A DNA stretch of 64,000 nucleotides from Cyanidioschyzon merolae (lineage: Eukaryota). Both the position numbers and the translations under genes were made by a program. The number at the start of each line of letters is the position of its first letter. The first letter of the stretch is position 1. Below are positions 2,185-57,109 of this stretch, piece by piece. Location: the NCBI GenBank assembly GCA_000091205.1, contig AP006492.2; one strand, given 5' to 3'. The notes beneath the pieces are model-generated. The model was given only the letters and a program-made list of their open reading frames with translations, did no database searches and was not told the DNA's origin.

Positions 2185-3203
2185 CTCCAGCGTCTTCTAC
2201 TAAACGACCTACTTGTTCGTGCTCACGCTGAAAAGCGCAGAGCCAGTACCCCACCACGAGCTGGAGGCGTTACTGGCGAAAATCGATTCGAGCGGATCGT
2301 TGCAGCGTCCATCGATTTCGCGCATGGCGATTCACAGGAAATCCTCCGCTGGGGTCAATGCGCCTGGGATGCGGCATTCCGGGATGCCGCGGTGATGCGG
2401 TGATCGGGCGCCGTAGACGGCTTGTGGATACTCAATGGCACGCATCTATGGTAAGTACAGAAAAGGTAATAATAGGTAATTATCGACCTAAACGTACAGT
2501 CGCTCTGTCATCATGGATCGATGCGTGCATGCTTGGTGATCCCGTAGCTCTGAACGCACGCGACAGAGCTACGGGATTTTAGGGCATTGGCGTCTTAGCG
2601 CCGCGCTACGTCTACCTAAACGACCTAACAGTCCACTTCATGTTGAAAACAAATAAATTTGGGGTGCTTGGGAGTTGAGGCGGCTCGTCGACGCAGGCCG
2701 CGCGAACGTCCCAAACACGCTTGTTTGGAACGGGTCTCTATCCGAGTAGAGTTGCGTGCCCCAGGGTACGCCCGAGTTCGCTGAACAGGCGTACCGTAAT
2801 GCGAACACGCTTCTAGTCTGCCAGGGCTGGGATACCAGCGGGCGCTTCAGCTCCGTCCGGCTGGAACAGCGAGCGTCTCGTGACTCGCATCGACGCCGGC
2901 GTTGTCCGCGCCAGCACCCGCGTAGACAGCCACGTCGAAGCTGCAACTGAAAGTGGTGTCTCTGTCCGTTACGCCTATGCGCAGGGCGAAGCCTGAATAT
3001 ACGAAGAACCACCCGAAACTTGACGAGAGTCACAAGAAGCTCAAGACGAGAGCATCATACCCTCTCCGTCGAGCTGCTCCTGGTGGTGAAACCGCGGTCC
3101 ATGCGAACGTCACAAACCAAGCATCAGCTCCAAATGGATGCAGTTTATCTAGTAAACTTCGAGATACTGTTCCCAACTCGTACAAGTCGTAACGAGCCCG
3201 TCA

Positions 3204-5726
3204 CTAGTAGGAGACATCCACGAGGCCGATGTGCCAGTAACCGTCGCGACTGAGGCGCCAGTTCGGAAACCCGCCACCACTTCCCCCGGGAGCACGATCC
3301 AGTATCCAGCCACATTCCATGCGCAAAGCGCCGAGCACACGCAACCCTAGTCCGACACTGATAACGCCGGACGCTGTGCTAGACCGCTGAATGGAGCCGG
3401 CGCTAGCTGGGGCATCAACGCCCGAGCTGGTGCTCTCAGCTGAGGCCGAATCCACAACGGTGCCGAGGCGGTGTCCGTGAGCGCCTCGACGGAACAACTT
3501 TGGAAAACGCACGAGATGCGAAGGTGGCTGAATCTCGGATCCCCAGTCCGTGAACGCCACAAACACGAGGCGCTTGTCGAGCGGGTATCGAAACTCTGCG
3601 CAGGTTCTCGCAAACGAGCCTACCTGTCCGAGTGATCCCTCACGCATCCCGCGAACGGTGGCTAATCCTCCGAAGGGATAACGCTCGGACTCGGGCAACG
3701 ATGCACTCGAAACACGTGCTTCAGCCAACAAAGCAACGCAGGCGCGGGCAGGCTGCTCTTCGTCTTGTTCTTGATTCTGGTGTGATGTTTCGGGTTGCTC
3801 GGTTTGTTTCCGACGACGACGCCGCAGGAGACCGCGAATAGGTGGTATTTTCTTGTACACACTGCCGGTGAAGCCAAAACGCGAATATTCTGGATTACTC
3901 GTTGTCACTGGAACCGCGTAGGCCGCATGCAGTGCAAGACGGTAGCCAGCTTGCGGATGGAGCGGATCCGATCGGGTATCACGGATAGCGCTGCTGTTCA
4001 GAACCAGGTGCGTGAAAGAGCGCTCTCGTGCGGTGGACGCTTCAGTCGTCGATTCATCGCGATTCCGTCTCGCTGACGCACCGTCTGCGGAAGCAGGAAG
4101 CGATGAGGACGCTGTCTGACCCGGATTCATTCCCGATGGAAACATTCGAACTTGCTCGCAGAGTACCCCTGTCTGGATATTCCATAGCTGCAGGGTCCGC
4201 TCCATGACGCTTCGCCAGGCAGCTGGTCGCAGCCAGGTTCGCGACGAGCGCCGAGCCTCATCTGTGGGTGCCGACCACAGCTGGGGCGCCATCAACGTAA
4301 CCTCTACCCCGCGACGACTTCCTACCGCCGTACTTCGTGATTCGAAGAGACGCACCTGGTAGCCGCCGGCCTTGGAACCTAGACGTGGATTCTGTAAGAC
4401 GATATGGGCTGCGTCATCGGATCGATCAGGCTTGGATCGGATATCTGCTTGAAAGCGAATCCCTCGGCCAGCGACATTTGCATCCTCCAAGGTTAGGTCT
4501 CCATAGAGCTTACCGCGGGAAAGCGTTATGCCGGGTTCGAAACGATGGAAAGGTCGTTCTCGCACGCGCAAGGTCAGTTCAACGTCACCTATTTCCGCAC
4601 AGCGTTCTGCTTGTGCGACTTGGCCTTCTGCTGCTGGCGAGTCGTGTGGCGTCACGGCGTCAATGACACGTACATCCGCTGTCACGGACTCGAACAGGCC
4701 CAACTGCTGCAGCCGCTGAAAGTGTTGTTCTGTCCAGCGGAACGGGACTTTGCGTGGACATGCCTTTTGCGCCGAACGCGACTTGCGCGAATGTCTCTGG
4801 TGGTCTGGCATTTCCTTCTCAACACCGAGTCCGTCATAGCCCAGGGCCCGGGCAATGACGCTGGCATGCGTCCGACCTGAGCACGGCTCCTGGTTGGCAT
4901 CCACGTATTCCACGAGGACTCTAGCGACGAGCGGCTCGTACGCCTCGAGGACCAGGATACCATCCTTGATAGGCGTATCGGGTGCTCTTCGTACAAGCGC
5001 AAGCGGGTATCCATGCTCGCCATAAAAAGCGTTCAAACTGTCGATTGAACGGCGAATGGCGGTGTAGTCAATGGACGCGTCAGCATTCTGATTAGCCTGA
5101 AGGATTCGATTCACCGCCTGCTCTAGGCGGTCACGTGGTAGCAGCAGACGATCAACGGGTCCACGGAGCACAACCTGGCGAAGTGGGCCTTTCGTCTGAT
5201 CGTTCGGATGTTCCGCGTAGATTTCGGCGGCTTCTTCTTCTGTAGCTGCAGTTGGGACGCTAAGCGCGAGAGCAGTCGGAGCACGCAGCCACACCTGTAC
5301 GGTGTGCCAGCATAGCGTCAGCCACAGCAGAAAACTTCCCCGATTGGGCAAGTCAGGAAAGCCACCAGCCACACCGTCGACGTAGGAGTTGCCTCCTCGG
5401 CCGCCACCGCCACGGAGAGTGCGGTCACCGATCGAACCGCACCAGGACCGTTTCACTCCAGGCTTGGTGGTGTTTCGGTGTCGCTTTCGACGAGAGCGTG
5501 CCATCGAGTCGAGCATTTGACTTTGCCACGAGCAGGTCAAAGGTTCTCCACGCTTCGATAACCACGTGGTGCTGCGGTGCCAGCGCTGCCCGGTACGATC
5601 CGCAGGAAACTGTTTCCTTGGTGCGTTCCGTCTTCGCTCGCGTGATGCAATAGATCGCGTACAGATTTTGAGAGCGTGAGCCCCTACACGAAGCGGATCA
5701 CCCGCCAGGAACCCCAGAACACACAT
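3204..5726 (-). CDS. Omp85-family outer-membrane beta-barrel protein (Toc75/OEP80-like or Sam50-like)
   Basis: The C-terminal part has the Omp85 barrel signature RYPFGGLATVRGMREGSLGQ...FRYPLDKRLVFVAFTDWGS and a terminal SVGLGLRV...DGYWHIGLVDVSY. Upstream is a POTRA-like segment (LRQVVLRGP...LEQAVNRIL...IDSLNAFYGEHGYPLALV...ILVLEAYEPLVARVLVEYVDANQ). The N-terminal extension contains a poly-Gly run (RTLRGGGGRGGNSYVDGVAGG) reminiscent of Toc75 targeting sequences. The ORF-track start at 5747 is GTG; the first ATG is at 5726. The true start may lie further downstream. Confidence 0.7.
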   Translation of the reverse strand: MCVLGFLAGDPLRVGAHALKICTRSIASRERRRNAPRKQFPADRTGQRWHRSTTWLSKRGEPLTCSWQSQMLDSMARSRRKRHRNTTKPGVKRSWCGSIGDRTLRGGGGRGGNSYVDGVAGGFPDLPNRGSFLLWLTLCWHTVQVWLRAPTALALSVPTAATEEEAAEIYAEHPNDQTKGPLRQVVLRGPVDRLLLPRDRLEQAVNRILQANQNADASIDYTAIRRSIDSLNAFYGEHGYPLALVRRAPDTPIKDGILVLEAYEPLVARVLVEYVDANQEPCSGRTHASVIARALGYDGLGVEKEMPDHQRHSRKSRSAQKACPRKVPFRWTEQHFQRLQQLGLFESVTADVRVIDAVTPHDSPAAEGQVAQAERCAEIGDVELTLRVRERPFHRFEPGITLSRGKLYGDLTLEDANVAGRGIRFQADIRSKPDRSDDAAHIVLQNPRLGSKAGGYQVRLFESRSTAVGSRRGVEVTLMAPQLWSAPTDEARRSSRTWLRPAAWRSVMERTLQLWNIQTGVLCEQVRMFPSGMNPGQTASSSLPASADGASARRNRDESTTEASTARERSFTHLVLNSSAIRDTRSDPLHPQAGYRLALHAAYAVPVTTSNPEYSRFGFTGSVYKKIPPIRGLLRRRRRKQTEQPETSHQNQEQDEEQPARACVALLAEARVSSASLPESERYPFGGLATVRGMREGSLGQVGSFARTCAEFRYPLDKRLVFVAFTDWGSEIQPPSHLVRFPKLFRRGAHGHRLGTVVDSASAESTSSGVDAPASAGSIQRSSTASGVISVGLGLRVLGALRMECGWILDRAPGGSGGGFPNWRLSRDGYWHIGLVDVSY

Positions 5727-6070
5727 AGCCCTACGACCCAGTCGCACGAGAACAACACATATCCTCAGCGATACAATGCTTCAGGGCGCGTGCGGCGCCT
5801 TGGCTGGCACAGCTGCTCGGTGTACTTGTCCTCTGAGACTGGTGAGACGTGCTGTTCCTCGACGTCGTTGGCGGTACGGGTCTCATGTTTGGGCTTTTCG
5901 TATAGCTTAGGGGAATTTCATGCGTATTGAGGGATTGAATAGTCCATTTTGCATAGAAGAGTGATCGGAAATCATCCCAAAAATGTCCAGGGTCATGTAG
6001 AGTAGCGGATCGTCGTGATCGTTCACCAAGGGTGCAGGAGAAACTTTCAAGCCATTTCTATACGGTGCTT

Positions 6071-6808
6071 CAGACGTTCTGGATTGATGGATCGTACCAT
6101 ACGATTGCCTTGATCCAGATGGGAATGCGAGACCGCCTCTCTTCTGGTCGCTGATATTGTTTCATCGAAAGTCTTCAGCGTTTCAGGACGAAGCGAATAC
6201 TGAAATTCAACGATTTCCTGGAGCGTTCTCTCGATGCAAAGGCGATGCAAGTTTCCACGGCGCGATACATAACCCGGATGTCGATTGACGCTTTGATTTC
6301 CTGGTTCGGAAAGCGGTTACCCGCATTATGGCTGCTGGGATCATTCCACAAAGTGCTTCTCAATATCGAGTGCCTTTCCATATGACGATCGGTTAGCGTA
6401 CCATGCAATATCGCGTGCTTCCGATGCTGTCTCATGCGCTGCTGCTCTACAAGCTTCAACTCGTACGAGTGCTCGTGATGCTAATATGTTGTCCTGAACG
6501 TATCGAATAACATCGATTCCAGCATTCGTTGTACGCTCTTTTCGAAAGAGCAGCAGTGCAGCTCCTGTCGGCTATAGCACTGTTTGCGCTATAACCTGCT
6601 TCGAAACGAGCCGACCTATCGGTCGTTTCCTTTTCCAACTCATTGAGACAGTTGGTGAAGGCGAGTTTCTTGCCTTTGTATTCCCGAAATTGTTGCTGAC
6701 TGCCCAGCGCGTTCTCATGTACTCTCTGAGAGAAGCATTCAAAGCATCAGACTCTGCTCAATACGGCGCTCAGGGTGTCGAGACGGGCTCTGACGCTGTC
6801 GTTCCACT
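6071..6808 (-). repeat. Dispersed repeat IR1, copy A (738 bp), inverted near-identical partner at 57110..57847
   Basis: The reverse complement of 6071..6808 matches 57110..57847 over the whole length with only a handful of mismatches. The encoded short ORFs differ by about 3 aa in total: ISITSTRTS vs ISIKSTRTS, AGNRF vs AGKRF, SRERSRK vs SSELSRK. Boundaries were read from where the flanking sequences diverge: agtggaacgacagcg...ccagaacgtctg. Confidence 0.85.
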
Positions 6809-8639
6809 AGTTGGTGTGCCCCGTGGCCTTTATCATGCTCGAATCCGGACAAAACAGCGCTCTCGAAAAACACAGGTCACATTGCATCCTGTGTCCCGAA
6901 AATCATTTATGTTGTCGCATGGGGTTTTTATCGAAAAGTTCCAGACGTTTGTGGACAGCTGATAGACCAGGGTCCGCAAATATTGCGAATCGTTGCATGT
7001 CGAGGTGCATCAAGGTGCGAGAAACCCGGTGAGACTTTCTCGAGTTCGAAGCTCTGCGACCTCTCAAGGCGTGCTAAATCTTTTTGCTGTCACAAATGCG
7101 AACGACTAGCCTATGGACACGGTAGCGTCACACTTGCGTTTGCCAACAGAGATGACGCTTTCGACTGGATTCAGCCAGAGAGAATAACTCGGCAAGAAGA
7201 GCAGCGCAACGCCATTCGCAGTTGCGTGCTCCTCGACCGCTGCCGAGTGATGGACAACGACGTTGTCTAACACCAGGACAGAAGCGTGCAGGATGGAGAC
7301 GCCATAAAGTGCTTCGACGAAGGATGAGGTGTTGAAGGACTCTGTCTGATCGGCGATTTCCAAGCGACCGAACGACTGAATCACTGCTCGGAGTGGTGTG
7401 TTCCGAGCGGTCGTTCGTCTCCTCTTGACGAATCGCCATATACCCACTTTAAGTAATATAATGCAGGTCTACCATTGCTCCAGAATAAAGTCTCATCGAG
7501 CGAGACGAGCACCGCTGTTGTACGCGCTTGCGTTTCAGTACCAAATGAAAAATGTGTTGTTCTATGCGCGAAAGGCTCACACAGAACTCGTCATTTTTCT
7601 CTGTGTATTCCGTGTCTAATCATCCTTGCTGGCGTTGACGGTATGGTAATCTCAAATCTTGTGGCCTCTTTGATGGGATATCTTGCAGAATTCACAGAAT
7701 GGAATCAATCGACGAGAAGAGATTCCCCCCGACAGAGATTCATAAGATTTGTTCTGTTTGTACGACATTAAGGATGAGGACCACAAGAACGGCTGTTTAT
7801 ACACCAGCTAATCATAAAATAACAGACTCGTCCAATTCATTTTCTGAAGCTGGCGATGAAGGCTTCAAGTTCTTTCGCGGGCATGTACCAATCTTCCAGC
7901 TGCGTTCTGTCTGTTGAATACCTGCAAGAACAACGAACAAGAATAAAAACACGATGCTGGAATAAGTATTCTAGAATGCACAGCTCCAAGTTCGACGCCC
8001 AGAAAAACAAAACTTTTGCGTGCAGATAGCTCGGTTTCACACGCTGCACGCTGCGTCCGGGCCCCGGAACAGAGCAGCTTGTCGTGTTGTGCACAGCAGT
8101 TGCGGTATGGGTTGCTGGATGTTGAACTCTGCGGCTGGAGCGCACGACCGCGGGACGTTAGCCTCTGCGATGCTGCGTCTAGACCCAGAGCGCGGGCATT
8201 GCTTGACAAGTGCGAGGCGGTGGGACCACGAACTGGAAAAATTCTCGAATACTGCTGTGCGGTAGCGTGTGTGGACGCGCAGGCCAGGAGGTTCTTCTCG
8301 ACCGGCGGCCAGCGCGTCGACGCTTATCGCAGCACCGAGCCCGAATGACGAGATGAATCCCTGTTCTCGTTGACACTCGGAGCTCTCGGTCGGCAAGGTT
8401 GTTTACCGTTGAGCTAGAGCAGCGCAGAAGCGTCTCTCGGGATGACGCCCTGTTTGCAGCACGGCTGCCAGGAACGTAATGGCGGGATACTTTACACCGT
8501 ATCCGGGTGTCACCTAGGTCAACGGATGACGGTATCAGCGGCGATCGTATCGCAAGGCGAAAACTCAGTAGCCTCTACAGCGATATTCTCAGTGAAACAG
8601 AAAATGACCCACGGCCACGGAGTATGAGTATTTATACCC

Positions 8640-9640
8640 ACCTGCAGACGTCTCCCAGTCTTTGTCGACCGGCCGCCTGCCATCGGCTTCAGTTTCTCTT
8701 TGTACACTTCGAACATGGGAGGCTATCCCAGGAATTTGAATGGTGTCAGCTCCCAGGGTCCCGTCTTCAGCACCGCACATCGTCTGGTATGGATGGCGGC
8801 ATCCAAGTCTCGATTCACGAAGTCCATGCGTCTACTGACATTGGTGGAGCTCATCAGTGCAAAGAGTCCACGAACTCGGGCCCTCTGTGCCATTTGGTGC
8901 AGTGCCAGCTCTCCGTGTTTTTCTCTTGCCGAAGCGCTCGGCTGCGCTCTCTCCATCTCGACCTTCTGTAATGGACACCCCAGCGCATCCATTAGATTCC
9001 CTACTTTTGAAAATGAATGCACTTGTTTATGCGCTTAGATGAGGAACCTCCCAGAGCGAGACGGCCTCGTACAAGAGAGGCGACATGTGCCTGGGTGTCA
9101 TCATGTGCTGAACGCTTCAGCGATTCGCTCAGTGCAGCGATCACTACTTTTCAGGATACAAAAATACTCCTTCGGCATGCTTGAACCACGAAGAGAAAGG
9201 AGGAATGAAAAGCATCTTTACCCCCATGGCATTTGCAAAGGCTCGAACGCGAGTAGAATGGTGGACTGCCACGTTGTCGAACACAGGAACGTCGCCAAGC
9301 GTCAGGGAAAGGTCTTCGATGATTCGACCGAGTGCTTGGTGCTGTTATATGAGCCTTCTCTACGAGCGAAGCTGAGGGCGCCGAATGAATCCAATGCACT
9401 TAGAACAGATGATGATATCATCGTTCTCTTCGGCTTCGATTTTACATACTACGTGCTCCCTGTTCCCCGAATACCCAAATACGCTCCGACCGTTTCGTCC
9501 GAGGCGATTCTGAATATCTGAAAAAAAGACGGACATGCCTAAGTTTTATAACGATCGCAAAGATCCAGAAATGCTGTAAGAGTTGCGATTTCGGTGGCAG
9601 ATGTATATGCTTGGACTAGGACTTTTTATTGCGACTGAAT
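8640..9640 (+). repeat. Dispersed repeat R2, copy A (about 1 kb), diverged partner at 55998..56845
   Basis: Nucleotide and ORF-level similarity to 55998..56845 in the same orientation. Examples: SMRLLTLVELISAKSPRTRALCAIWC vs SMRLLLLMELTVSRNPRTRALCAVCC, and on the other strand AQRARVRGLFALMSSTNVSRRMDFVNR vs the copy-B equivalent. The conserved blocks catccattag..ttttgaaaatgaatgcactt and ttgcgactgaatc are present in both copies. Coding potential is broken by frameshifts. Confidence 0.6.
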
Positions 9641-10593
9641 CGCAGTGTTTTCAGCACTTTGCCAATAAGCTGTTGAGTGACAGAGACACACCTAGTTGCT
9701 ACTATCGTAGCTTTTGCTTTCTCTAAAGTGATCAATGGATCGTTTTCTACCATTGCCCGCAAACAAGCTTTGAGAATATCGGTTTCTGGCGCGGAGCGCC
9801 TCTACTCGTTTCTTTCAGTCTTCCTCAATCATCTGAGCATTGTACCATGTCTGGCCTTACTGAGGAATGCAGTCCTCGTTGCGCTGTTCAGTAAAGTATA
9901 TATATCCTCCAGGCAATTCGTCATCTATCTACACGGCACATTGCGTATTTTCTTCGATCTGCAGTTACTCTCCGCATCGGGGGTAAACCGAAAATCGAGA
10001 TGAAACGCAATCAGGGCGTGCATCGGCAGTCCATGGAAGTATTCCTGCAGTGCTCATCATAGAGTGCTGTCAGGAACCGTTTCCAGATCGCCTGGACAAC
10101 TTCAAAGCATCCCATAACTTGAAATGGTCATGCAGGTAGACGCTCTTGTGGTATCGTGCTTCCTTTCAAGTACGATCCCAGCGTAAGGGTCCCCAGACAC
10201 GAGCGCGACATGAAACGCGATCAATTCTGCCCCAAGTTTTGAAACCTAAAACCCGTGCATACCGAGTCCATGCCTCGTGTGTTGTGAAACACGAGTCCCT
10301 GAATGCTGAGCGTCGTTTCTGGACCCGCTGGCATGCCGGCTGGCGAACGACGCAACAAGGTACTCGACGGCGTCTTGGAGCCAGTGAAAAGGACACAGCG
10401 ACTTGCACGCGAAACCGGCATCGATTGAGGCCAGATACAGCTATCTTGGGGGTGGCAGGGTGTCGGTCCTCGTCACGCAACCGGCGTCGAGAGTCCAACA
10501 ATAAACGCTTTAGCGGAGACTGAAACTGTGCCCTCGGGGAGTTGTTTGTACCCAATCGGTTGGAACTCGAAAAACCAGGCGGTTGGTTTGATC

Positions 10594-12800: not shown

Positions 12801-13559
12801 GCACTGGCAAAAGTTTTGATAGACGTTTCGCCTCCCATTTCCATCCCGTTTGGACACAACCTCGGCGCTTTTTTCACAAATGTCGCTATGGACTTGGCTT
12901 AGACCTTTTCAAATGCCTATAATATCTTCTGGTTCGAGCACCGCGTTGCAGTGTTTGAATGCTTGCTGTACCGTTCGGTGCATGCCCTGAACCTGTGCGG
13001 AATGCTCCAGCCGATGATCTTGTACGTTTCCGTGCCCGGTGCCGTACGCAACGATCGCAACCTTCATCAGGGCGCTCCTACAAGCAAAGTAGTCTTTCAG
13101 ATGCACACAGAAGCACACGCCGCTCCATTCCGTACAGATTTCGGGGAACACGACCTTGTCCATGATGAAACTAGTCCCGGAAAGTTAATGCAGGTTAGAA
13201 ATCATGTCGACAAATTTCTACCCGTCTCGGCTCCGTTCGTACAAAGCGGGGTGTCTCTCTCTCCACGGGAAGCGATTGCTTCAATGACTAAAGACGGAGT
13301 TCAAGACCCTATTCCACGCGTACAGGTGAGACAAGAGCCTCTGAGAGCGCAAAACGTCTGAGATACCGTGCTGCTGTTGAATGCCTCGCCTCCAGTAGCC
13401 TCAAAGCTATTAGGATCTGTCTTTCGAACGAGACCCATTATTTGACCCAACAATAGCAGTTTACTTTAAAAAAAAGCTTGGGAAGAGGTCGTCAAAGGTC
13501 GATGACGTGCAACTTTCATCGTCCGTCGATTGGTGCGAATTGCCACGCCTACGACTCAC

Positions 13560-13680
13560 CGTGAAACAGAAATATTGAAAACCTGAAGATTTCGTTATCG
13601 AGTCGTGATATGCCTAGGGAAAGGAGAAAATTGATGGCCATACCTACGACTTGGATAATGATTTCGATTATTTTACGCAC
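13560..13680 (+). repeat. Short dispersed repeat family R4 (about 120 bp), copy 1 of 3
   Basis: gaaacagaaatattgaaaacctgaag...ggataatgatttcgattatt aligns with 18710..18830 (gaaacagaaagcttgaaaacctgaag...ggatagcgatatcggttatt) and with 52265..52375 (ggaaacttgaagcttgcgtga...gggtaatgatatcggttatg). Confidence 0.55.
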
Positions 13681-17473: not shown

Positions 17474-18709
17474 CAACGAGTTTGTGTGTCAGCAAGTGTG
17501 GCCTTCGCATGCGCAGAATGCCAGCACTGCGAAACGCGTAGACGGTTGGCGGTAGCGCGGCCCTGTCGACGCGTCCATATTGAGCGGCACGGATGGCAAA
17601 CGCGTCTCTGGCGCCCGATACGTTCCTAGGAGGGCGGAAAACCCCCGATCATGCACGACGACTAGGTTACGCAAGAGCTCGAGTTACCTGCTCCATCAGT
17701 ATCAGCATAAAAGGAAATAGTTGCTCTAAATCGGGTGCGGGATCTAAAGTTATGGTTTCGTTTCAAGATCATCAACAATTGCGTTGCGGGCTTGCTCTGC
17801 AACTGCTTCCTTTGCTTCGCGCTCGTATTTGCGGCCTTACGGGTAGCGATCGATCGTTTCGCTCGAGCTTGGTAGTCAGCAGCGCAAGGGATTCGATGAC
17901 AGGGTTAAAGTCCCGATTGCTGTGCATCCAGCTGTTGTCGAAGCGTTTCAAGCACAGGCGGTAGTTACAATCGATGCATCGTCTCCTTTTTACATGGTGT
18001 TTGCATAGAGCCTTGATGTGCGCTTCGCAGCGATGACATTAGGCCATAGTCGGACGTTCCATTATGTTCATGAAAGGCATGCCTCCGAGTGAGGCCTTGT
18101 CGCACTCGAGGACTCGCTTCAGTGCCTGGTGCATGCCGTTGCCAGTTATGGAACGCTGCTCTTGATGCCCTCCACCGTTTCCGCGCGTGCTCGCTGCGGT
18201 ACCCTGCGAACACGGGCCTCTTCTGGGTGATTGTCTCCGCATGAGCACTTTGATCGCTGCAAGTACGGGTGCTTGCTGTTTCACTCGATAGCGGATTTAT
18301 GGAACGGAATGTTGTCCATAATGAGACACGTTCTGGAAGTATAATCCAGACTGCGGAACAAGTGCAGAGATTTCGAAGCGTCGACGTCCGCATCATGCAG
18401 AGCTTTGACGCACTCGCCACTAGAAGCGATCGCTGGGAGGACTGGAGCTCGAGCCCAAGACCCTTTTCCGTGCACACAGAGGATACGGAGGCCTCTGAGA
18501 GCGAATCCCGCAAGAGGTATCATGCTGGTATCGAAGTCCCTTAGGTCGATCGCCATTGAAGCGGATTTGCTTCACGGATGGAACAGATTATTTGATGTGA
18601 CAAGGTCAGTGAAGTTTCAGCATGAACGTGTGTGAAGCATTCATCGGTGGATGGCGCCTTGTATTGCGTGATAAAGCCAGCGGGGCGTATTCCTGCACCC
18701 ACGAGTTGC

Positions 18710-18830
18710 CTCGAAACAGAAAGCTTGAAAACCTGAAGTATGCGTGACTTGAGCATGGTGCGTGCAGAACGAAAAGGAAGCGCCAAGGCTAGTACTTGGG
18801 CATTGGATAGCGATATCGGTTATTTCAGCA
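18710..18830 (+). repeat. Short dispersed repeat family R4, copy 2 of 3
   Basis: See the 13560..13680 entry. The 5' block gaaacagaaagcttgaaaacctgaagtatgcgtgacttgagc and the 3' block ggatagcgatatcggttatttcagc are conserved. Confidence 0.55.
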
Positions 18831-21195
18831 AACTTTGTTTCAAGGCGAAGAGTATCATCAACATGAGGGTTACGTTCCGAATGCGAGCGGCAAGCGTCGA
18901 CGGAGCCATTCGCAAATGAAGATCGAGAATCCTCAACTGGCGTACGAATCCGTAAGCCTATATTGCAGCGCTTCGAAAGCCGAGGGCGTCCATCGAAAAA
19001 CTTTGGTAAACAATCGCAAGGCAGGAACGGAGCGAGCAGCTCACGAATCCATTTGAATTGGACACGGGCGTGGGGAGCTGCCTTGCAGTGTGCCGCCTTT
19101 GCCTCTTCACGTGTGCCGTCGATGTACCTCAAGATAAATGTCCGCGTCCGGAGGCATCCATCAACATCGAGAACAAACGTTTCTCCGCAGCAAACGACAC
19201 GAAAACGAGGCAATAGGTGGATCTTCTCGTACGCTTTTGTACGACGACGCTGGCGACGCCACATACATATCACCTCGTCCGCGCACATGTCCACGATACA
19301 CCAGGAGGGAAGCGTCAATCGTTTTCTTCTGTGTAGTGGCATCCGGACATGGGACCTTGGCAACAGGCATGCAAAGCTTGGGTAGTGTCAGCATCCAGGC
19401 AGGCGCACCTCGTGTTTGTTCGCTGCTATTCGGGAAGCGACAGGGACGCTTGGGATATGTGCGGCTGTAGAGACGCCGAGACCACAGCTCCTGCGCAGTT
19501 GGCGGATAAGCGACAAGGCGATGCATACGCGCTTACGGAAAGCTGATTTTTTCATGGTACACGATCCAAGAATTACTTTGAATATTCCTGGATGTACGGT
19601 TGATTTAGGCAACTCGAGGAGAGACCCATGATTGCATGCTTGGAGTGAACGATGTATGATCCAAGCATCGAATTGGAATATCCCTGGATGTGTGATTGCG
19701 ATACGCTATGTAGGATGCGGAAAACGTTCCTCTCCTGACGACGCTGCGATCAAGTGCCGAAAGAATAGACTTCCCATCGAAGGGTGTCGGATCGAAGATC
19801 CCCTGCTCATGTGTATGGGTGTCAAGCGTCTGGACGCCGCACACACTCGAAGATTCCATAGACGGGCTTCGAGCTAGCGCTTGCCGGAACGGCGATGTAG
19901 TGCCCATGACTTGGTGAAGTAGTTCCAACCTGGAAGCAGTTGCAATTTCTGTTTGCATAGTTGACGGCATAGAGCCGAAATCACACGAAAATGCTGGGTC
20001 CGCTTTCCGGCCGTCTTGCACAATGCCTAGCTTGGAGACTTTGCCCTGCCATGGATTCCCCTGAGTGCACCAATGTCGTCGTAGTCGTCGTCAGGAAGCG
20101 GCGCCCTTTGATACCCAGAATCGTCCCGCAAGCAGCACGAAGAACTGGGCACCGCGCTCTATATTCGGCAGACGCTGACGTTCGGTATACATTGTTTGAG
20201 GCGGCTTGTCCAGGTGTCGCATCCCGTTTCATGTCGTAGACAATTAGAATGGAGGCTGCGTTGCATGTCATGGACGAATACGCATCAACAGTTTCTTGCA
20301 TACCACCTTGGTTGACGTTCTCGGCACGACATGATACTGGACGTCATCTGGGCCGCTCGATGTTGGTTTAGGGCGCCGGCCAGGGAACCGGTAGCGTCTG
20401 CGAAGGGCCGAACGATGATGGAGGCATGTTGCTGGTCTCCATGCCTGCCTGTATAGCCTTCCGCGTCTGATGACCAACAAGGCTCTTGCAGTCGGACTGT
20501 ATCGCACGCAAGTCGTCCGAGTCGTAAGCGGACAGTGCGGAACACGCCCGAAAAATCTCTGTTGCGACATCTTTTCTCGGAATGCTCCGGGGCTTCAGCA
20601 GAGAGCTGGTACGCATCTTACTGGGTCGCTTTGCAGCAGCCGGTCGCAAGGAACCATATAGGCAGAATAGAGTCACAACTGGTGGCCCTAGTCGATTCGT
20701 CGTCGCTAAATCGTCAAACGAGATTCCCGAAGCATTTACGAATCCTACATCATTTGGAGTCTATAGCGAGGAGCCGCTGTACCACAGCCAAGAGCCAATT
20801 CTCGATAACGATAACGACTGATGCGCGTGATTGCCCTGAAGTAAACGCTGGTCTGTGCAGGGTCGCTATCGCCCGGTGAAGCAACGGAAAACGACACGCT
20901 TTTGCTTGCCCCACGAACTCGGATATCATTCTTTGGTCGGTATGATGCACCCGTCGCAGCTGCATATACCGCGTCCCGTTTTTCGTCGCCAGTTTGAACT
21001 GCACCTGCGCTGCGCACTTTGACTGCTGCGGGTCATGGGTAAGCGTTCGGCTTCGCAACCGCTACGACGCTACGGGGCATCCAGGTACATCCGTTCAGGT
21101 CATCGACGGACGACCGACTGTGCCAGAAAACAATGGCACTCTTGGAATGAACGGAAAATCTGCTGGTGCCGCAGCTCGTACTGCCGGACACGGAC

Positions 21196-21978
21196 CTAGT
21201 CCTTGGTATCGACCTCCCGAGCCTCGACGTTGATCACTGCACTCCGTGCGTCCTCACTCAAAACAAAATTGCCGTTTTTCTCCACAAGAATACGTTGCGT
21301 ACAGGACGGACAACGGAACTCCTTACCCACAAGGCCAGTCACAGGGAAACGGCAGTTCGGACAAGTCCCTTCACGCACGTTCGCCGCTATCCACCAGCGC
21401 AGTACGAGCGCCCCGACAACAGGAGCGATGCTCAGCAGCGCAAATAGAATGAGAAACGAATCGAAGATTACCCCGATGCGACCGCTGAACACCAGCCACA
21501 CAAGGATCGCCCAGACAACAAGCTGTCCCTGTGCAGAGGAAAGCCAACGTGAAGCGCGAATCAGTGCACTATCCCAATCGAACAGCGGACCACGGCGCTT
21601 CTGCTGGCCCACCAGACTACGTACTCCAGCGTTGCCGCTTTTGCGGAGGTGTGCCCGGCCAGAGCCGGCGGCAAGCGCTGCTTCCCGCTGTTGCCTCCAG
21701 GTGCACGGGTTGATGCGAACCGCACGGCACCAAGCACCTACGCGACGATCTGCTAGTCGATGCCGGTCCTCGGTTCTCGAGTAGCTCCCTCTCGCCTCAA
21801 AACTTGTGGAGTGAAGCGAGCACTCTACCGGAACCAACCAACAAGAAGAAGGTTTGCGACGCATATCCGAGCCTCGTGCAACTGGTACACGTTTCCACCG
21901 AGCGTCGTGCGGCGAGCAACGGGATCGACCCTGAGCGCGCCTCGCCGCCTCCACGATGCTGCTGGATACTTGTTGCAT
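21196..21978 (-). CDS. Hypothetical membrane protein with two predicted TM helices and a C-terminal CxxC-x13-CxxC zinc-ribbon
   Basis: The C-terminal 130 aa read LVVWAILVWLVFSGRIGVIFDSFLILFALLSIAPVVGALVLRWWIAANVREGTCPNCRFPVTGLVGKEFRCPSCTQRILVEKNGNF. That is two hydrophobic helices followed by a zinc-ribbon-like Cys4 motif. The N-terminal 130 aa is R/S-rich low complexity and may not be coding. There is no firm family assignment; the topology loosely recalls PGRL1-like proteins. Confidence 0.3.
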   Translation of the reverse strand: MQQVSSSIVEAARRAQGRSRCSPHDARWKRVPVARGSDMRRKPSSCWLVPVECSLHSTSFEARGSYSRTEDRHRLADRRVGAWCRAVRINPCTWRQQREAALAAGSGRAHLRKSGNAGVRSLVGQQKRRGPLFDWDSALIRASRWLSSAQGQLVVWAILVWLVFSGRIGVIFDSFLILFALLSIAPVVGALVLRWWIAANVREGTCPNCRFPVTGLVGKEFRCPSCTQRILVEKNGNFVLSEDARSAVINVEAREVDTKD

Positions 21979-22313
21979 GTTGTGACTCGCAGTAGGATGC
22001 TTATTCGTTTAAATGTTTGCATCCCGGGAGCTAGATGCCTGTTGCATGTTGTGACTCGCAGTAGGATGCTTATTCGTTTAAATGTTTGCATCCCGGGAGC
22101 TAGATGCCTGTTGCATGTTGTGACTCGCAGTAGGATGCTTATTCGTTTAACGGTTTGCATCCCGGGAGCTAGATGCCTGTTGCATGTTGTGACTCGCAGT
22201 AGGATGCTTATTCGTTTAACGGTTTGCATCCCGGGAGCTAGATGCCTGTTGCATGTTGTGACTCGCAGTAGGATGCTTATTCGTTTAACGGTTTGCATCC
22301 CGGGAGACAAATG
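21960..22313. repeat. Tandem minisatellite, 69-bp unit x about 5
   Basis: The unit ttgcatgttgtgactcgcagtaggatgcttattcgtttaa(a/c)(t/g)gtttgcatcccgggagctagatgcctg begins at 21973, 22042, 22111, 22180 and 22249, an exact 69-bp period. Copies 1-2 carry aaatg and copies 3-5 carry aacgg. Because 69 is a multiple of 3, long ORFs stay open on both strands across the array. Confidence 0.9.
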
Positions 22314-23098
22314 GACGTTCCGATGTTTAAGCAGTAGCACGCTGTGGTATTCGAATTCACGGACTCAGACGATCGAGTGGTACGAAACGCCGTGCGTGAG
22401 GAATTTGGGTTGCGTCTCTGGCTGTCCACAGCGTTGCAGCGCTTCGTGTATGTGATGCGAACGACCGCGAAGCGCGCAAGCTCTGAAGCTGGGTACTAGT
22501 GTCGTCAGGGAGAGGCGATGAAAAAAGGTTAAGTATGTAGGAGCGCTCGCGAGCTGCCCTACGTCATCACGAATATGCACCAGGCGACATGGAGCGCTCG
22601 CTGCAATCGCAAGGCGCCTCTTGAACGCTGGAGGCGGCCGTTGACCACGAGGGCACGATGTTTCGCTGGCAACTCGAAACATAGGAACACTTCACGCGCA
22701 AACCATGGAAAGCGAGAACTCATTGCGTGCCAGAGCGATCGCCTCCAGCAGCGAAAGGAGCAGCGAGAACCCTAGCCGACTGTTCCCAGACGCGACACTC
22801 GTCTGGTGCCTTTGCTGCTCAGTAAACGAGCGTGCCACCTGGTCGACAGCGCTCAGGCGAAAGCGCTCTGTACACTGGTTAGGAGAGCATCTAAAACTCG
22901 CATAACTCTGAATCTATCGAATCCTTCGCATCTAAGTAGAAACGTACCCATAAACGTCTTCGCTTTTGCAGCACAAACCCGTGAACGAACACCCTCCATG
23001 TCGTCGACATAGGTTGTCGACTATGGCTGTGCGCAGCGCATTCACCGGTCTAGTGGTGGAACTTGCTGCGCAAGAAGTTGCGAGCTCTCTGGAGCGGC

Positions 23099-27228: not shown

Positions 27229-28904
27229 ATTTAGGTCGCTTTACAAGTCTGCAAGCACCGTCGCCAACAGCACACAAAACAGCAGTTAACAGAAAGAAAG
27301 AATGAATGAATGAATGAACGATGCGATGCCAAGCGCGCCTGCGTTGTACTCAGTGTCTAGGGCGCAGCGGATGCGACGCACAGGTCGCTAGCGGCGCGCG
27401 TCTGGGCATCGAGTAGCGAGCCGACGCCCGCTGGGACATGGGAAAGCCGTACTTTCTCCGTTCTATGAGTGCACCAGCGCTCTAGTCGCTATCGCGGACG
27501 ATTAGGACAGGTACTCTACACATGGTAGAACGTGTAAAGCGACCAGAATATTCGAGGAGACGTATGGGTGATGGGATTTGGAAGACGGGCGTAGATCGAT
27601 GGATGCTTTACCACGCGCTCATATCGAGCGCGCAGTCGGGTAAAGCTGGCCGATATAACCATTCTTTCAAATAAAAACTCTGGAACTCCAGCGCGACAGC
27701 GGGCGCCGCAAGCACCGATACTGCGCTTACGACATAAGAGTTGCCGTGGCGCGGGAACTCAAGCATCTTTCCGCCTAGGTTTGTATTCGGGGTATTCACT
27801 AGTTCGTTAGAGAGTAGTGGACCACAACTGGCGCTCGTCTAGTGGAGTCGTGTCAAATGAGAATGGAATTCTGAACTGCTTGCTCTGTTCCTGCCTTTCA
27901 GTTTTTTAGAGCTTCTTTCGGACGTACAAATTTGACCTTACAAGTGCATCAAAAAGAACTTACTGGTTCATGTTTAAGTCTAGAATGTTCGGTGGTGTTT
28001 CCGCGGGGTGGTGCATTCGACGCTTTGCCGCTGGCATCCGTGACTTTATGGTCATCAAGATGATTCACAACGCCATCGAACAACATTTCGTAAACTAACT
28101 GACTGCGTTATCCAATGCAAACAAGCAAGTCGCCACGCTTCGCCTCTCCTTACGTGTAGCATGCTCGAATCACAGATTCTCCAAGTTTTCGATTATTCTG
28201 TTCCCAAGTCGCTCGTTGGCGCGGCGATGCGCGCCGCTGTATAGACGATGAAATAGTCTCAAAGGTGTCACTGGCAGACTTATTCACAAGACACGTGGCA
28301 AAGGTTCATTTTACCGCCAATGTTCAATATTCGATGCGGTTCGAGGAAGAAATTCTCTAATCTACTTAGTAGTCGACGAAACGGTATCCCACACCAGCAT
28401 GATAGCTCTGACAGGATATGCTCCAGGAGACTCCTTGTTTCTTCTATTTGCATGCGAGAGGGCGTTGAAAGCGGACTTTCGTCATCGCAGCGATCGCTTC
28501 TAGTGGAGCGTGGGTCACCGCTTTCCACAAACGGGGCGTAGACGCATCGGGTGCGCTCGAATGCCTCGCCGACCTGAATTGCCCTTCCGATACGTTTTCC
28601 AGCAACGAAAACATCGCGTACCCCGAAGCCTCTATCGAGTAGAACAGCGCGCACTTAGAGTTGCACCAAACAGAATACTCTCCGGGGTATCGCTCAGACC
28701 AAGACCGCCATCGTGGCGTATGGTGGTTGACGCGGAAACCGGGGCAGCAAGGGTATCCCCCTGGACAAGTAAAAGGCATGTATCGAGCGATGGGGCAAGC
28801 GTTCACGACCCACAGGACGACGCTCGGAGTAGGAGGCGGAAGAGGTTCGCTTGAAATATGGTAAAACCGGAGCACGGCCAGGCGTCACCGCTGTGAAGGG
28901 CACG

Positions 28905-30305: not shown

Positions 30306-31569
30306 CACGCTCGCAACCTCGCAGACCCTCGAACCAGACGATGTTCACGCCCAAACGAATGCACAAAGCGTTCGTATCGATCGGCTCTGGATCCTTGCAC
30401 GCCCCGTTCAGGAGCGCCCGCGCCCGGGCGGCGGCAGCGACGGCGCGTTCATGAAGCCGCTCACCGTCGGATGCGCAGCGGCGGCGGCGCTTGCGCTGCG
30501 CCCCTGTCTGCCAGCATCCACAGCGGTATGGAATGGGGTACGGAACGACTGGATCCGTTCCTGCGCTTCGGGTTTCTTTTCGAGAGTTTTTGCAGTTGTG
30601 CAGTCTCGAGTTTCGACGTGTAGCGAGAGGGGCTTGGGGATTCACCTGAAGTCTTAGGAAACTCGGTCGACGTTTTGGAGTGGCTTGTTTAACGCTTTGC
30701 CGCTGGTGTTCCTTGCGTCACCGTAAACGAGATAATTCGCAAGAGTCCGTAAACAATGAATTGATAGTATTATGCATTGTTTAGGCATATACCACCATTC
30801 TCTTCAAATGATGCATAGCTTGCCTGCATCACGCAATCTTCAGGCTCTGGATCTTCCTCTTTGTAGGCATCTGGTGCGCCTAGCGACATTCGCCGATGGA
30901 TCATCGACGACAAATGGACGACGACGTTCCTTGAGAAGTGCTGTATGAGCTCGCGCCGAACGTTTCTTGAAGTTCTCATTCCAAATTAGCGAATCGGTTC
31001 GAAAGTCAAATCCTGATCTCTTTGTGGCCATGAACGAAACGGCATTCGACAGCAGCACGATACCTCTCGCATGAGGCATGCAGCCCCGAGCTTCCGCCTC
31101 TACTGTTTGCAAGAGAAAGAGTTTTGAAGTTGGAATCCAGCCATCGAATCGTTGGCTTCCAGGACAGCGTGCGTCACTGCTTTGCACGAAGCGAGCGTAG
31201 AAGCATCGACATTGTTCGAAGTTATCTCCAGTAGAGAGTGTGCCCCCGGTACTTGTTTGATGACGGACGACATTGCGTTTCATAAATCGCTTATCGAATG
31301 GAAATGCACGCTATTTCTCGTACAGCAAATAGCTTCATCACGTAGTGAATCGCCTAGAAACAGCCCGTGATTATCGGGTACGGGACCGGGCGCGGAAACG
31401 GAGGCGGGCATGAAGCAGAGCGCTCTATACCAGTTGAGTACATGAAACGATCGACAAAACAAGCGTTCACACGCTATAGGGTACACATTTTACGAAGAGG
31501 AAAAGGAGCAGGTGTGCTGCACATATGGAAACAACTCATCATAGCCATATGTCATTGCTGCGAAGCGCG

Positions 31570-37100: not shown

Positions 37101-37580
37101 TCATTTCGACAGCGTTGGATATGTTCTCTCGTGGAGGCTTGGCACCCAGGATATGAACCACGGCATGCGTCATTCATCATCACCGTGCTGATCGTAGAAC
37201 GTCGGACGCTTTCATCTAATATGTTTTTCTGCAAGCAACTAGTCACAACGTAAAATCTTTCCGCAACCTCTCTCCAGTTCACATCGTACTTTTCTTTTAT
37301 TTTTTACCCTGGAAAAAATCAAACAAAGACGACAAATAAGATCTGGCACAGGTGTTCAAGAATCCGATCCCTCAAGTACCATACGCACGCTCGATACACA
37401 TCGAACGTGCTGCGAATGGAGTTTATTTGCATCGCACGGAAGCTCCGGGACGCCGTCGGCCGTGCTCGTGTTTGCACCAGAGGCCGCTGGGAAGCCCAAA
37501 ACGTCACCGAGTCTTAGTGGCAGTCACACGAGCACCGGTGGCAACTTTGAAGCAAATCTTTTATCAGTGATACGCTGACT

Positions 37581-37710
37581 GCACATGCACATGCACACGC
37601 ACATGCACACGCACACGCACATGCACATGCACATGCACATGCACACGCACATGCACACGCACATGCACACGCACACGCACACGCACACGCACACGCACAT
37701 GCACACGCAT
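37581..37710. repeat. Compound microsatellite (CACATG/CACACG)n, alternating purine-pyrimidine
   Basis: gcacatgcacatgcacacgcacatgcacacgcacacgc... runs for about 130 bp. It sits about 150 bp downstream of the stop of the minus-strand gene ending at 37859. It generates the spurious poly-(CV)/(HV) ORFs 37524..37706 and 37564..37797. Confidence 0.9.
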
Positions 37711-37858
37711 CAAGTGCGCGTCGCGGCCGCCAGTAGATCCTAGCCCTCGAGCCCTAAACGGCATACAGGGATGAATGCGCGTACCATCGAGGTACACGCA
37801 TCTGTCGACAGCTCATTCAACAAAGTGTGCTCATGGCTGCATGATTCATAGGCACATC

Positions 37859-43042: not shown

Positions 43043-43280
43043 CGGCGATAGCCCGTGCAATAACAGGACGGCTCGCAGAAAAAGTACAGTTCTATACAAA
43101 TTGGCCATCGGCCGATGCCGGGCGGCGGCAGCCCGTGCAATTAATGGACGGCTCGCAGAAACTGCACACTTCTACACAAATTGGGTGTCGGCCAGTGCCG
43201 AGCCCTGCGGCCGTACCCTCGTGTGCGCCCAGACTGATGCCGAGATAGCGGCTGGTATCGCTGCTCGTGCCGGGCGGCTT
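43043..43280. repeat. Tandem repeat, about 80-bp unit x about 2.5, immediately upstream of the ABC-F gene
   Basis: gcccgtgcaataacaggacggctcgcagaaaaagtacagttctatacaaattggccatcggccgatgccgggcggc is followed by gcccgtgcaattaatggacggctcgcagaaactgcacacttctacacaaattgggtgtcggccagtgccgag, with an 80-bp period (gcccgtgcaa at 43051 and 43131). A partial third copy is gatagcggctggtatcgctgctcgtgccgggcggc. Confidence 0.75.
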
Positions 43281-48826: not shown

Positions 48827-49050
48827 GCGCACGGACTGCTTCTCTCATGCTATGTCTATTCGGGTACATGAACGTTGTGTACACTTCATCCAACTGTGGA
48901 GTGTGCGGACTGCTTCTCTCATGCTATGATCATTCGGGTACATGAACGTTGTGTGCACTTCATCCAAGTGTGGAGTGTGCGGACTGCTCGTCGCAACCTG
49001 TGATCATTCGGGTATGTGAACAATGCGGCTACGTCATCCAAGTCAGCCCA
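48827..49050. repeat. Tandem repeat, 74-bp unit x 3, upstream of the AspRS gene
   Basis: cggactgcttctctcatgctatg(t/a)(c/t)(t/c)attcgggtacatgaacgttgtgt(a/g)cacttcatccaa(c/g)tgtggagtgtg begins at about 48832, 48906 and 48980 (74-bp period). The third copy is diverged. Confidence 0.8.
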
Positions 49051-52264: not shown

Positions 52265-52375
52265 AGGAAGATCGGAAACTTGAAGCTTGCGTGATTTAAG
52301 CGCGTGAAATGTTAGCAAAGGAGAAGTGTGGATGCTTGTACGTATACATTGGGTAATGATATCGGTTATGTAACG
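52265..52375 (+). repeat. Short dispersed repeat family R4, copy 3 of 3
   Basis: See the 13560..13680 entry. This copy lies about 350 bp upstream of the COG4-like gene. Confidence 0.5.
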
Positions 52376-52720
52376 AACGCTGATTCGTATGCGTCGTGAA
52401 TGAACTCGATTCCTTTGCCGTAGCGAATACCAGCGGCAAATACTCTATGGAGATACTCGGAAAACAAGACCAAGCATCGTAAACCTACACATCGATCCAC
52501 AAGCGCTTGTCGCTGCATTTGGCATGTCGAGGCTGTGCATCTGAAAATTTCCGAAAGACATCGACAAGGCAGGAAAAGAGCGAGTACTTCAGTGTCCCAT
52601 GTCAGGTTGACGTGGGTGTAGCGCACCTTCATATAATAAGGTAATCTTTGTTCCAGTCGCTGATAAACCAGAGACACCTGCGCTCATGAGAGAATCGAGT
52701 GAGCGACTTGGTAGCCCTCA

Positions 52721-55997: not shown

Positions 55998-56845
55998 CCA
56001 CTCGCAGACGCCTCTCAGGTTTTTTTGAACGGCCGCCTGTTATCGGTATCAGTTTATCCTTTTGCAGATTGAGAGCCTCAGACGCTAATCTACACAGATG
56101 GATCGCGTCAGCTCAGCGGGTCTCGGCTTCAACAACGCACAACATCTGATACGAAAGGCAGTGTTGAATTCTCGGTTCATGAACTCCATGCGTCTATTAC
56201 TTCTGATGGAACTCACCGTTTCAAGGAATCCTCGAACTCGTGCCCTCTGTGCCGTTTGTTGCAGAGTCAGCTCTCAGAACTTTTCGATCGCCAAAGCGCG
56301 CCGATGTCTTCTCTTCATCTCGACTTTTTGAAGTGTACGCCCCGGCGCATCCATTAGGTTTCTTATTTTTGAAAATGAATGCACTTTTTTATGCTCATTG
56401 TGAAAACCTTCCTGGAGCGAGAAGGATTTGCGGAAGAAACACAAAGCAAGGGGAATGGTGAGATGTCACATTGTCCAATCGAAGTTTGTCGGTAGGCTTC
56501 AGGGGAAAAGTCTGCAATGCTTCGAAGAAGTGGTTGTTGCTGCTGTATAAGCCTTCTGGACGCGCGAAACTTAGGCTGCCAGATGAGTCCACTGCAGCTA
56601 GAACAGATGATGATGTCGTCGCTCTCCACGAATTCGATCGCATATACAACGGATTCCTTCTCCGCGAATACCCATATACGCTCCGACCGTTTCGTCTGGA
56701 GCAAATCTCATCAACTGAGAAAAAAAACGACGTCCCTGTGCTTCATACGGATGGCGACGTTCGAGGAACGTCAAAGCACCGATTTCCGTCCAAGATGGCC
56801 GTGGGTAAACTAGGAATCTTTTTTCGCGACTGAATCCCAACGTAC
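55998..56845 (+). repeat. Dispersed repeat R2, copy B
   Basis: See the 8640..9640 entry. It lies about 265 bp upstream of IR1 copy B. Confidence 0.6.
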
Positions 56846-57109
56846 TCAGGCCCGCACAAACGAGCTGTTTGAAAACCTAGGCCGGAGTAGAGCATCAGTC
56901 CTCTTTTTCAACCTTCCAAGGTAGATGAAGAGCTACGTTTCGTGGATGGCGTCGATCCCGAGCTGAAGGACCTGATCGCCGTCACCCTAGATGTATGTAA
57001 AATAGATGGTGGTAATGACGCTCAGTCAAGCAGATGAAACTGCTCAACTGTCCCAGGGTTCTATATTATCGAGAGCCGGGCATGACAGACGCCAGGAGGC
57101 ATTGCAACA

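Follow-up and report, generated by a model that had tools for sequence, protein, structure and literature searches.

Within a 64,000-nt stretch of Cyanidioschyzon merolae 10D chromosome 10 (hereafter the window), two diverged repeat copies, R2-A and R2-B, each lie beside a copy of a near-identical inverted repeat, IR1. This arrangement raises the question of what R2 once was, and whether R2 and IR1 descend from one element or from two. An initial annotation had described R2 as the remnant of a mobile-element gene, possibly with a CxxC zinc finger, and R2 plus IR1 as a decayed composite element. Five long ORFs of the window were identical to proteins of the C. merolae 10D series BAM80327-BAM80335, and contigs from hot-spring metagenomes carried the orthologous DNA at ~99.2-99.5% identity to the window.

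The presence of the R2 pair, with both copies on the plus strand and thus forming direct repeats, was confirmed by window-against-window blastn, by the repeat families D3, D5 and D7 and by MAFFT alignment. Blastn aligned 8610-9064 with 55972-56425 at 72.8% identity over 460 nt (E 1.5e-67) and 9256-9644 with 56453-56839 at 70.6% over 391 nt (E 9.6e-45). These values (~71-73%) agree with the 70-80% that had been estimated by eye. Both pairs were recovered with the default low-complexity filter of BLAST on, which shows that the likeness is not confined to low-complexity sequence. The homology common to both copies spans 8588-~9690 in R2-A and 55949-56903 in R2-B, and ~190 bp of R2-A (9065-9255) are absent from R2-B. 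Past this common part, the R2-A element extends to ~9980-10005, its 5′ end being uncertain between 9980 and 10005. R2-B lacks the 5′ ~290 bp, with the first ~83 transposase codons, as well as the internal ~190 bp. The two copies and their parts, all of which read on the minus strand, were mapped as follows.

8588 to 9995, minus strand: R2-A, a pseudogenised full-length member of the R2 family, ~1.41 kb (1408 bp), from the multiple alignment and its conservation profile
9033 to 9941, minus strand: R2-A transposase pseudogene of IS630/Tc1 type with a D-to-E spacing of 34, from tblastn, Pfam DDE_3 and HMM
8636 to 8992, minus strand: R2-A Fanzor1 tail, CMe-1 residues ~613-729, RuvC-II/III region, from tblastn and blastn
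8588 to 8635, minus strand: R2-A non-coding 3′ end, aligning with the 3′ terminus of CMe-1A, from alignments
55949 to 56903, minus strand: R2-B, a truncated member of the R2 family, from blastn to R2-A
56452 to 56903, minus strand: R2-B transposase piece, from tblastn and HMM
55999 to 56350, minus strand: R2-B Fanzor tail, matching the CMe-1 protein (E 1.5e-18) and the CMe-1A consensus (E 9e-24)

The degenerate minus-strand reading frames reported for R2 are present in the sequence, together with both peptides quoted from them, and the stops and frameshifts that interrupt these frames are real. 'DDIIICS(K/S)C' lies in ORF 9360..9536(-) of R2-A and in ORF 56363..56704(-) of R2-B; R2-A ORF 8723..9022(-) holds AQRARVRGLFALMSSTNVSRRMDFVNR, whose R2-B counterpart, AQRARVRGFLETVSSIRSNRRMEFMNR, is alike but not identical. 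An exact look-up of ten local ORFs found none of them in the protein collection as a called protein with those boundaries.

The zinc finger proposed on the basis of the first peptide did not hold, as the 'DDIIICSxC' frame is shifted against the frame that matches transposases. This latter frame reads KRTMISSSVLSALDSFGALSFARREGSY in R2-A and RATTSSSVLAAVDSSGSLSFARPEG in R2-B, and the same site in an intact homologue (P0055) reads RMTTTSVLAAMQEDG. Neither are the cysteines kept in other members of the family, which show 'IILSRCSG' and 'IAASRCRG'. The CxxC peptide is an artefact, DNA of the transposase frame read one frame off, and the peptides of the two copies are alike because the underlying DNA is alike. 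Pfam scans, which took in the minus frames of 5750-10528, plus frames of R2-A (five of its six frames in total) and R2-B in all six frames, found no hAT, BED or other zinc-finger domain, the best zinc-finger-like matches being at chance level (zf-PHD-like, E 0.043; Prok-RING, E 0.055). With no credible Pfam match and the CxxC out of register with the transposase frame, the zinc-finger/hAT reading of R2 was rejected.

What R2 encodes in its 5′ part is a transposase. A profile built from three relics of the window was searched against 1.84 billion proteins and matched 1712 of them at E<=1e-3; the best intact ones, ~300 aa long, score 109-131 bits with the NCBIfam IS630 model, above its cut-off of 100. 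Mapped back, the intact homologues cover R2-A from 9909 to 9033, that is, from the helix-turn-helix (HTH) to residue 298/300, and R2-B from 56903 to 56452. Inside R2-A, the HTH lies at ~9622-9909 and the DDE domain at ~9156-9577. The segment 9909-9625 matched aa 11-106 of an intact homologue (P0066; E 1e-9, tblastn), the HTH region aligned with positions 12-109 of the transposase HMM (E 3e-12), and 9341-9033 matched aa 201-298 of an IS630-type protein (E 5e-10, tblastn). Once frame-corrected, R2-A reached 31.7 bits with Pfam DDE_3 (cut-off 28.6) over profile positions 12-127; the frame read initially gave a weak match of 24.8 bits over positions 79-127. In R2-B, 56718-56452 matched P0055 aa 140-226 (E 8.5e-13, tblastn), only the last helix of the HTH is left (56873-56903), and the D3 region of the transposase is deleted. 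The transposase HMM matched R2-A with E 1.7e-15 and R2-B with E 9.6e-19. R2 thus carries the DDE_3-type catalytic domain of the IS630/Tc1/mariner group and, on R2-A, its N-terminal helix-turn-helix. The R2-A gene has at least three frameshifts and several stops, and no intact ORF with a complete D,D,E triad was present in R2-A or R2-B.

Fanzor1 is a TnpB-like RNA-guided RuvC nuclease. CMe-1A is a 3169-bp Fanzor1 element of C. merolae with ~150 copies, no terminal inverted repeats (TIRs) and an unknown class (PMC3627910), and its consensus and the CMe-1 protein were taken from the supplement of that study. The tail of R2-A was 55.6% identical to the published CMe-1 protein (E 1.5e-31, tblastn), and 8636-8988(-) was 71.8% identical to nt 2737-3088 of the CMe-1A consensus (E 8e-44, blastn); the R2-B tail, 55999-56350(-), corresponds to this part as well. 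R2-A keeps 'VNRD' and has lost the E of RuvC-II ('VHSF' for 'VDEF'), the 'NRD' of RuvC-III reads 'NRE' in R2-B, and RuvC-I is absent; the complete D...E...D set with zinc-ribbon region of a working nuclease was not found in R2. The second quoted peptide ('AQRARVRG...MDFVNR') is the RuvC-III region of this Fanzor. Together, the Pfam DDE_3 match and the Fanzor1 homology substantiate the earlier view of R2 as a decayed remnant of once-coding mobile-element genes.

The two parts are joined very tightly. In R2 the transposase stretches to ~9033, and no more than ~40 bp further on the Fanzor sequence sets in at residue ~611-613; therefore, Fanzor codons 1 to ~610 are missing. CMe-1A nt 1-2700 gave no blastn match in or beside R2, and from the full ~3.2-kb CMe-1A structure only consensus nt ~2700-3169 are present. 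All five R2-family copies cease to be alike at the 3′ end where the CMe-1A consensus stops, and the R2-A 3′ end lacks the 28-nt hairpin of this consensus. Folding of the CMe-1A consensus tail gave z = -2.96; the three sequences of the tail were too few to provide usable covariation for an omega-RNA-like conserved structure.

Further R2 copies, which the initial annotation had proposed to look for, do exist. A metagenome scan with the R2 transposase alignment, which used two narrow peptide patterns, returned six loci, and all six were R2-A or R2-B orthologues in strains ~99.3% identical to the window. The paralogues were reached only through a protein search with the Fanzor tail of R2-A, which gave five further ORFs. 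They come from three loci of hot-spring metagenomes (L017, L018/L019 and L020) with unrelated flanking genes, align colinearly with window 9946-8635 for 1.2-1.3 kb (68-70% identity) and measure 1400-1410 bp. All have a common junction, in which the transposase stop is followed by Fanzor aa 611-616. Because paralogues of the same length and junction occur at unrelated loci, the deleted unit itself must have multiplied. The paralogues at L017, L018 and L020 are all broken, as are the two copies of the window. From their G+C content (~53-55% at all three loci) and, for L018/L019, from the shared sample, we infer that these loci belong to C. merolae-like genomes.

None of the R2-type copies at other loci has IR1-type sequence. 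Two of them have other transposase/Fanzor relics beside them, in both cases head-to-head: at L017, a relic at 2602-2845(-) lies beside the R2-type copy at 3132-4439(+), and at L020, a relic at 3155-3526(-) lies beside the copy at 3893-5195(+). This points to a general tendency of transposase/Fanzor relics to cluster.

In IS630/Tc1 elements, TIRs and TA target duplications are expected. Neither the two ends of R2-A nor the alignment of the family gave a credible TIR pair, and when R2-A, R2-B and three intact relatives (L013, L014 and L016) were searched, only short chance-like pairs came up. Decay to ~70% identity could hide short TIRs of R2. The flanks of the five R2 copies share no TA, as read with a 5′ boundary that is uncertain by ~25 bp. 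The family ends (window ~9980-10010 and 8588-8600, minus strand; also L018 and L020) show a short resemblance that is direct, not inverted: '(C/G)TTTCAnCTC(G/A)A' lies close to the 5′ terminus and 'GTTTCACTGA(G/C)' at the 3′ one. A possible start of the 5′ end is 'CGATGCGG', which can be compared with the 'CGATGAC' of CMe-1A.

The nearest intact transposases suggest what the parent of R2 looked like. On the contig of the best intact homologue, L011, the transposase is followed, after a gap of 10 bp, by a Fanzor1 ORF whose match to CMe-1 extends over 610 aa at 42% identity (E 5e-155). The same layout was seen in L013-L015 and in L016, whose Fanzor1 ORFs match CMe-1 with E 2e-89 and E 4e-78. In total, three distinct elements on five contigs (L011, L013-L015 and L016) carry Fanzor1 10-140 bp downstream, on the same strand. 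Since the nearest intact transposases are followed by a full Fanzor1, R2 would derive from a transposase+Fanzor1 transposon by internal deletion. The part of the 10D genome that was searched contained no intact R2-type copy and no copy of the transposase with a full Fanzor. One further intact transposase homologue (P0065, on the 6204-bp Logan SRR16126893 contig L012) has no Fanzor downstream. It adjoins genes with Peptidase_S74 and DUF5906 domains, which we take to be a hint of a viral or virophage-like setting.

IR1 (6071-6857 and 57061-57847, inverted) proved to belong to another element of similar make-up, of which the window holds three copies.

6071 to 7722, minus strand: F1-A, a second, related transposase+Fanzor relic, from Pfam, HMM and tblastn
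57025 to 57847, plus strand: IR1-B, an F1-type Fanzor tail without transposase, from the Fanzor HMM (E 1.5e-18)
34946 to 37288, minus strand: copy C, a third F1-type element, strongly decayed, from blastn, tblastn and HMM

F1-A comprises a transposase relic at 7073-7722 (Pfam DDE_3, E 2e-15; transposase HMM, E 3e-27) and a Fanzor relic at 6274-6989 (tblastn with CMe-1, E 3e-11; with the L011 Fanzor, E 9e-15), and IR1-A is its 3′ part. Word-indexed protein searches returned only its own orthologue for the F1-A transposase ORF and nothing for the IR1 Fanzor translation. Copy C consists of a transposase relic at 36431-37288 and Fanzor pieces within 35133-36167; it is colinear with 6059-7284 at 66-71% (blastn) and matches P0055 aa 2-286 (E 5e-7, tblastn). 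It therefore has an IR1-type tail and its own transposase, without R2. The Fanzor lineage of IR1 differs from that of R2, IR1 being 27-31% identical to CMe-1 and R2-A 56%; with the L011 Fanzor, IR1 shows 37% identity (E 6e-19). Judged by these matches, and by the transposase relic that lies directly upstream in F1-A and in copy C, IR1 is the 3′ part of another transposase+Fanzor element, related to R2. A candidate reading of IR1 as a transposase HTH was rejected, as IR1 matches the Fanzor RuvC region. R2 and IR1 were taken as separate neighbouring relics because each has its own Fanzor tail and transposase relic.

Taken together, it is very probable that the R2 copies are dead members of a ~1.4-kb DNA-transposon family, made of a transposase and a Fanzor1 tail, that arose from an internally deleted parent and later decayed, and that IR1 represents a neighbouring second element. 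The parent would have been a two-gene element, with the transposase followed by a full Fanzor1, and Fanzor codons 1 to ~610 would have been lost from it by an internal deletion. So shortened, the unit would then have spread to at least five loci, presumably by its own cut-and-paste transposase, and neutral decay would have introduced stops and frameshifts and left the family members 67-70% identical to one another; R2-A would have stayed full length and R2-B would have lost the two segments it now lacks. This order, deletion before spread, is suggested by the shared junction.

The composite element put forward in the initial annotation implies that R2 and IR1 were parts of one old duplicated hAT-like or zinc-finger unit, split in region A by a 1.8-kb insertion and with one part inverted. 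R2 and IR1 adjoin at both places and, given the ~70 bp of old diverged homology at the IR1-B core, both IR1 copies may be as old as R2. Nevertheless, the two tails come from different Fanzor lineages, each of them paired with its own transposase relic; the 'spacer' of region A is no insertion into an older R2-IR1 unit, since most of it is filled by F1-A, the IR1 element itself, whose transposase relic (7073-7722) lies there; copy C is of IR1 type without R2, paralogues of R2 form units of 1.40 kb that include no IR1 at three other loci, and there is no zinc-finger or hAT domain in the frames scanned. A composite of this kind is accordingly very improbable. The labels 'same' and 'inverted' given to the R2-IR1 pairs also turned out to be arbitrary: in coding sense, R2 and the IR1 element are head-to-tail in region A (both minus) and head-to-head in region B. 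A nested insertion, in which an IS630-like element entered CMe-1A at Fanzor codon ~610 and the hybrid was copied by segmental duplication, would account for the CMe-1A consensus containing no transposase remnant, which we looked for inside it, and for relics that cluster and adjoin one another at several loci. We regard it as improbable, in view of at least five copies at unrelated loci with common ends and junction and 1400-1410 bp long, which fits a mobile unit. Moreover, no CMe-1A sequence lies upstream of the R2 transposase, the ~10-40 bp from the transposase stop to the Fanzor tail leave no room for a separate 3′ end, and transposase followed by Fanzor is the native arrangement in the intact relatives.

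Finally, the likeness of the R2 copies might reflect a conserved host function, either a regulatory region or short plus-strand host genes. Plus-strand ORFs of 112-160 aa occur in both copies, and strains with ~99.3% identity to the window retain the R2 loci. Against this, the plus-strand frames have no Pfam match, a look-up of two R2-A plus-strand ORFs found neither in the protein collection, the level of divergence is much the same in both halves (70.6% and 72.8%) and every frame is disrupted by indels, and the transposase and Fanzor homology accounts for the whole sequence, so that host function is an explanation to which we give almost no credence. R2 amounts to unremarkable debris of dead transposons, of a kind already known: the frames scanned hold no zinc-finger gene, R2 and IR1 make up no composite element, and neither is functional today. 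These relics sit in the few long intergenic spacers of the compact C. merolae genome.

The much greater age of R2 relative to the near-identical part of IR1, stated in the initial annotation, was upheld (identities of ~71-73% for R2 and 98.8% for the IR1 core), and of the two options raised there for IR1, younger or homogenised, homogenisation is the better. The near-identical core measures 742 bp (6071-6812 and 57106-57847). On the IR1-B side, 57025-57105 is homologous to the IR1-A side but diverged; the next ~70 bp beyond the core are Fanzor-homologous and in frame in both copies, and IR1-B, which reads PRVLYYREPGMTDARRH, is nearer to the intact Fanzor than IR1-A, which reads SRALFCPDSSMIKATGH. 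Because this flank is diverged and in frame, gene conversion fits better than recent insertion. Gene conversion between old inverted paralogues is thus suggested as the most likely source of the near-identity, the flank being a single one of ~70 bp.

The 50 kb between the IR1 copies contain ordinary host genes, four transposase relics and copy C. The two complete mobilisable ends that would make a composite transposon of this segment were not found, the IR1 copies being Fanzor-tail fragments. Recombining with one another, two inverted copies of 742 bp that are 98.8% identical could flip this 50-kb segment, which has the reference orientation in L008 and L009. The 50,488-bp metagenome contig Ga0078972_1003134 (L005/L007) begins and ends ~150 bp inside the two IR1 copies and covers all that lies between them, and 41-kb metagenome contigs (L002/L003) also end inside IR1-B, which indicates that assemblies break at the IR1 inverted repeat.

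With regard to known systems, the last ~450 bp of R2 correspond to CMe-1A nt ~2700-3169, that is, to Fanzor1 residues ~611-734 plus the 3′ terminus, at ~70-72% nucleotide and 46-56% amino acid identity. Both are old families whose copies are far from the consensus, and in R2, as in CMe-1A, no TIRs were detectable, nor, with the R2 5′ boundary placed to within ~25 bp, any target site duplications. Unlike CMe-1A, R2 has an IS630-type transposase in place of the 5′ ~2.7 kb, which comprise the TE-N2_CMe-like leader as well as Fanzor residues 1-610; it also lacks the 28-nt terminal hairpin and is low-copy, with five loci seen as compared with ~150-253 copies. The Mariner/Tc1-type transposons PUl-1, PUl-2 and PGv-1 bear Fanzor1 (Bao & Jurka 2013, PMC3627910), and R2 shares with them an IS630/Tc1/mariner transposase followed by Fanzor1 on the same strand. 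The intact relatives have this two-gene layout too, and their transposases match the 'Mariner' transposase of PUl-1 from end to end (E down to 4e-26). PUl-1 differs in having 24-bp TIRs, TA duplications and a full Fanzor1, where R2 has only the tail, and in a D-to-E spacing of 43, against 34 in R2 and its relatives, both counted by hand from the sequences. The closest intact R2 homologues resemble the bacterial IS630 family in passing its NCBIfam model; in contrast to bacterial IS630, the R2 and F1 relics are eukaryotic, nuclear and linked to Fanzor1.

As R2 shows, an IS630/Tc1-type transposase once shared a mobile unit with a Fanzor tail and right end of CMe-1A type. It links two C. merolae repeat classes that had been described separately, IS630-type transposase relics and Fanzor1 repeats, and offers a concrete candidate, open to testing, for what mobilised the Fanzor elements of C. 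merolae. R2 and IR1 also recall the Fanzor 'ghost loci', in which the omega-RNA region stands without the protein (Saito et al. 2023, PMC10432273), in that they keep the Fanzor 3′ tail and right end, where Fanzor/TnpB omega-RNAs are encoded; this likeness is one of DNA, and an omega-RNA of R2 or IR1 is putative. A more far-reaching reading, which we consider unlikely, is that R2 is the fossil transposase partner that mobilised CMe-1A, its retained tail being a right end and omega-RNA 'ghost' guide locus at which Fanzor, acting in trans, could drive RNA-guided homing or gene conversion. If so, CMe-1A would join the IS630/Tc1-mariner group, and both the clustering of relics and the homogenisation of IR1 over exactly its Fanzor tail would be explained.

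According to the genome paper, C. merolae, which is cited as a eukaryote nearly devoid of transposons, has 26 class I and 8 class II transposons plus one 253-copy repeat (PMC1955436). The eight class II elements have bacterial transposases as nearest kin, and the 253-copy interspersed repeat carries a WSV486-like ORF (Nozaki et al. 2007, PMC1955436). From the descriptions, CMe-1A is presumably this repeat, and the 2007 count of transposase-related elements very probably includes R2 and F1. An HMM made from the intact homologues found eight IS630-like transposase relics in the window.

7073 to 7722, minus strand: transposase relic of F1-A
9156 to 9906, minus strand: transposase relic of R2-A
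18290 to 18984, minus strand: transposase relic
28005 to 28310, plus strand: transposase relic
30602 to 31289, plus strand: transposase relic
36434 to 36978, minus strand: transposase relic of copy C
52181 to 52540, minus strand: transposase relic
56452 to 56873, minus strand: transposase relic of R2-B

With eight relics in one window, either the 2007 paper undercounted class II elements or this part of chromosome 10 has exceptionally many; the result suggests that class II relics in C. merolae are more numerous than reported.

Other repeats of the window were also recorded. The dispersed repeats D4 and D9 (13532-13595, 18682-18745, 42075-42138 and 52229-52292; 18777-18823 and 52323-52369) lie, in their copies at 18.7 kb and 52.3 kb, within the HTH part of two transposase relics, and the copies at 13.5 kb and 42.1 kb may be further transposase relics. 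At 47812-48069(+) and 27417-27640(-), fragments match the TE-N2_CMe-like leader, which makes up the initial ~250 nt of the CMe-1A consensus, with 69-74% identity. A tandem repeat at 21961-22382 (69 bp x5), four units of which are 93-100% identical, lies inside overlapping long ORFs; two others are found at 48825-49046 (74 bp x3) and 43042-43201 (80 bp x2), and a (GCACAY)n microsatellite at 37557-37727 adjoins copy C.
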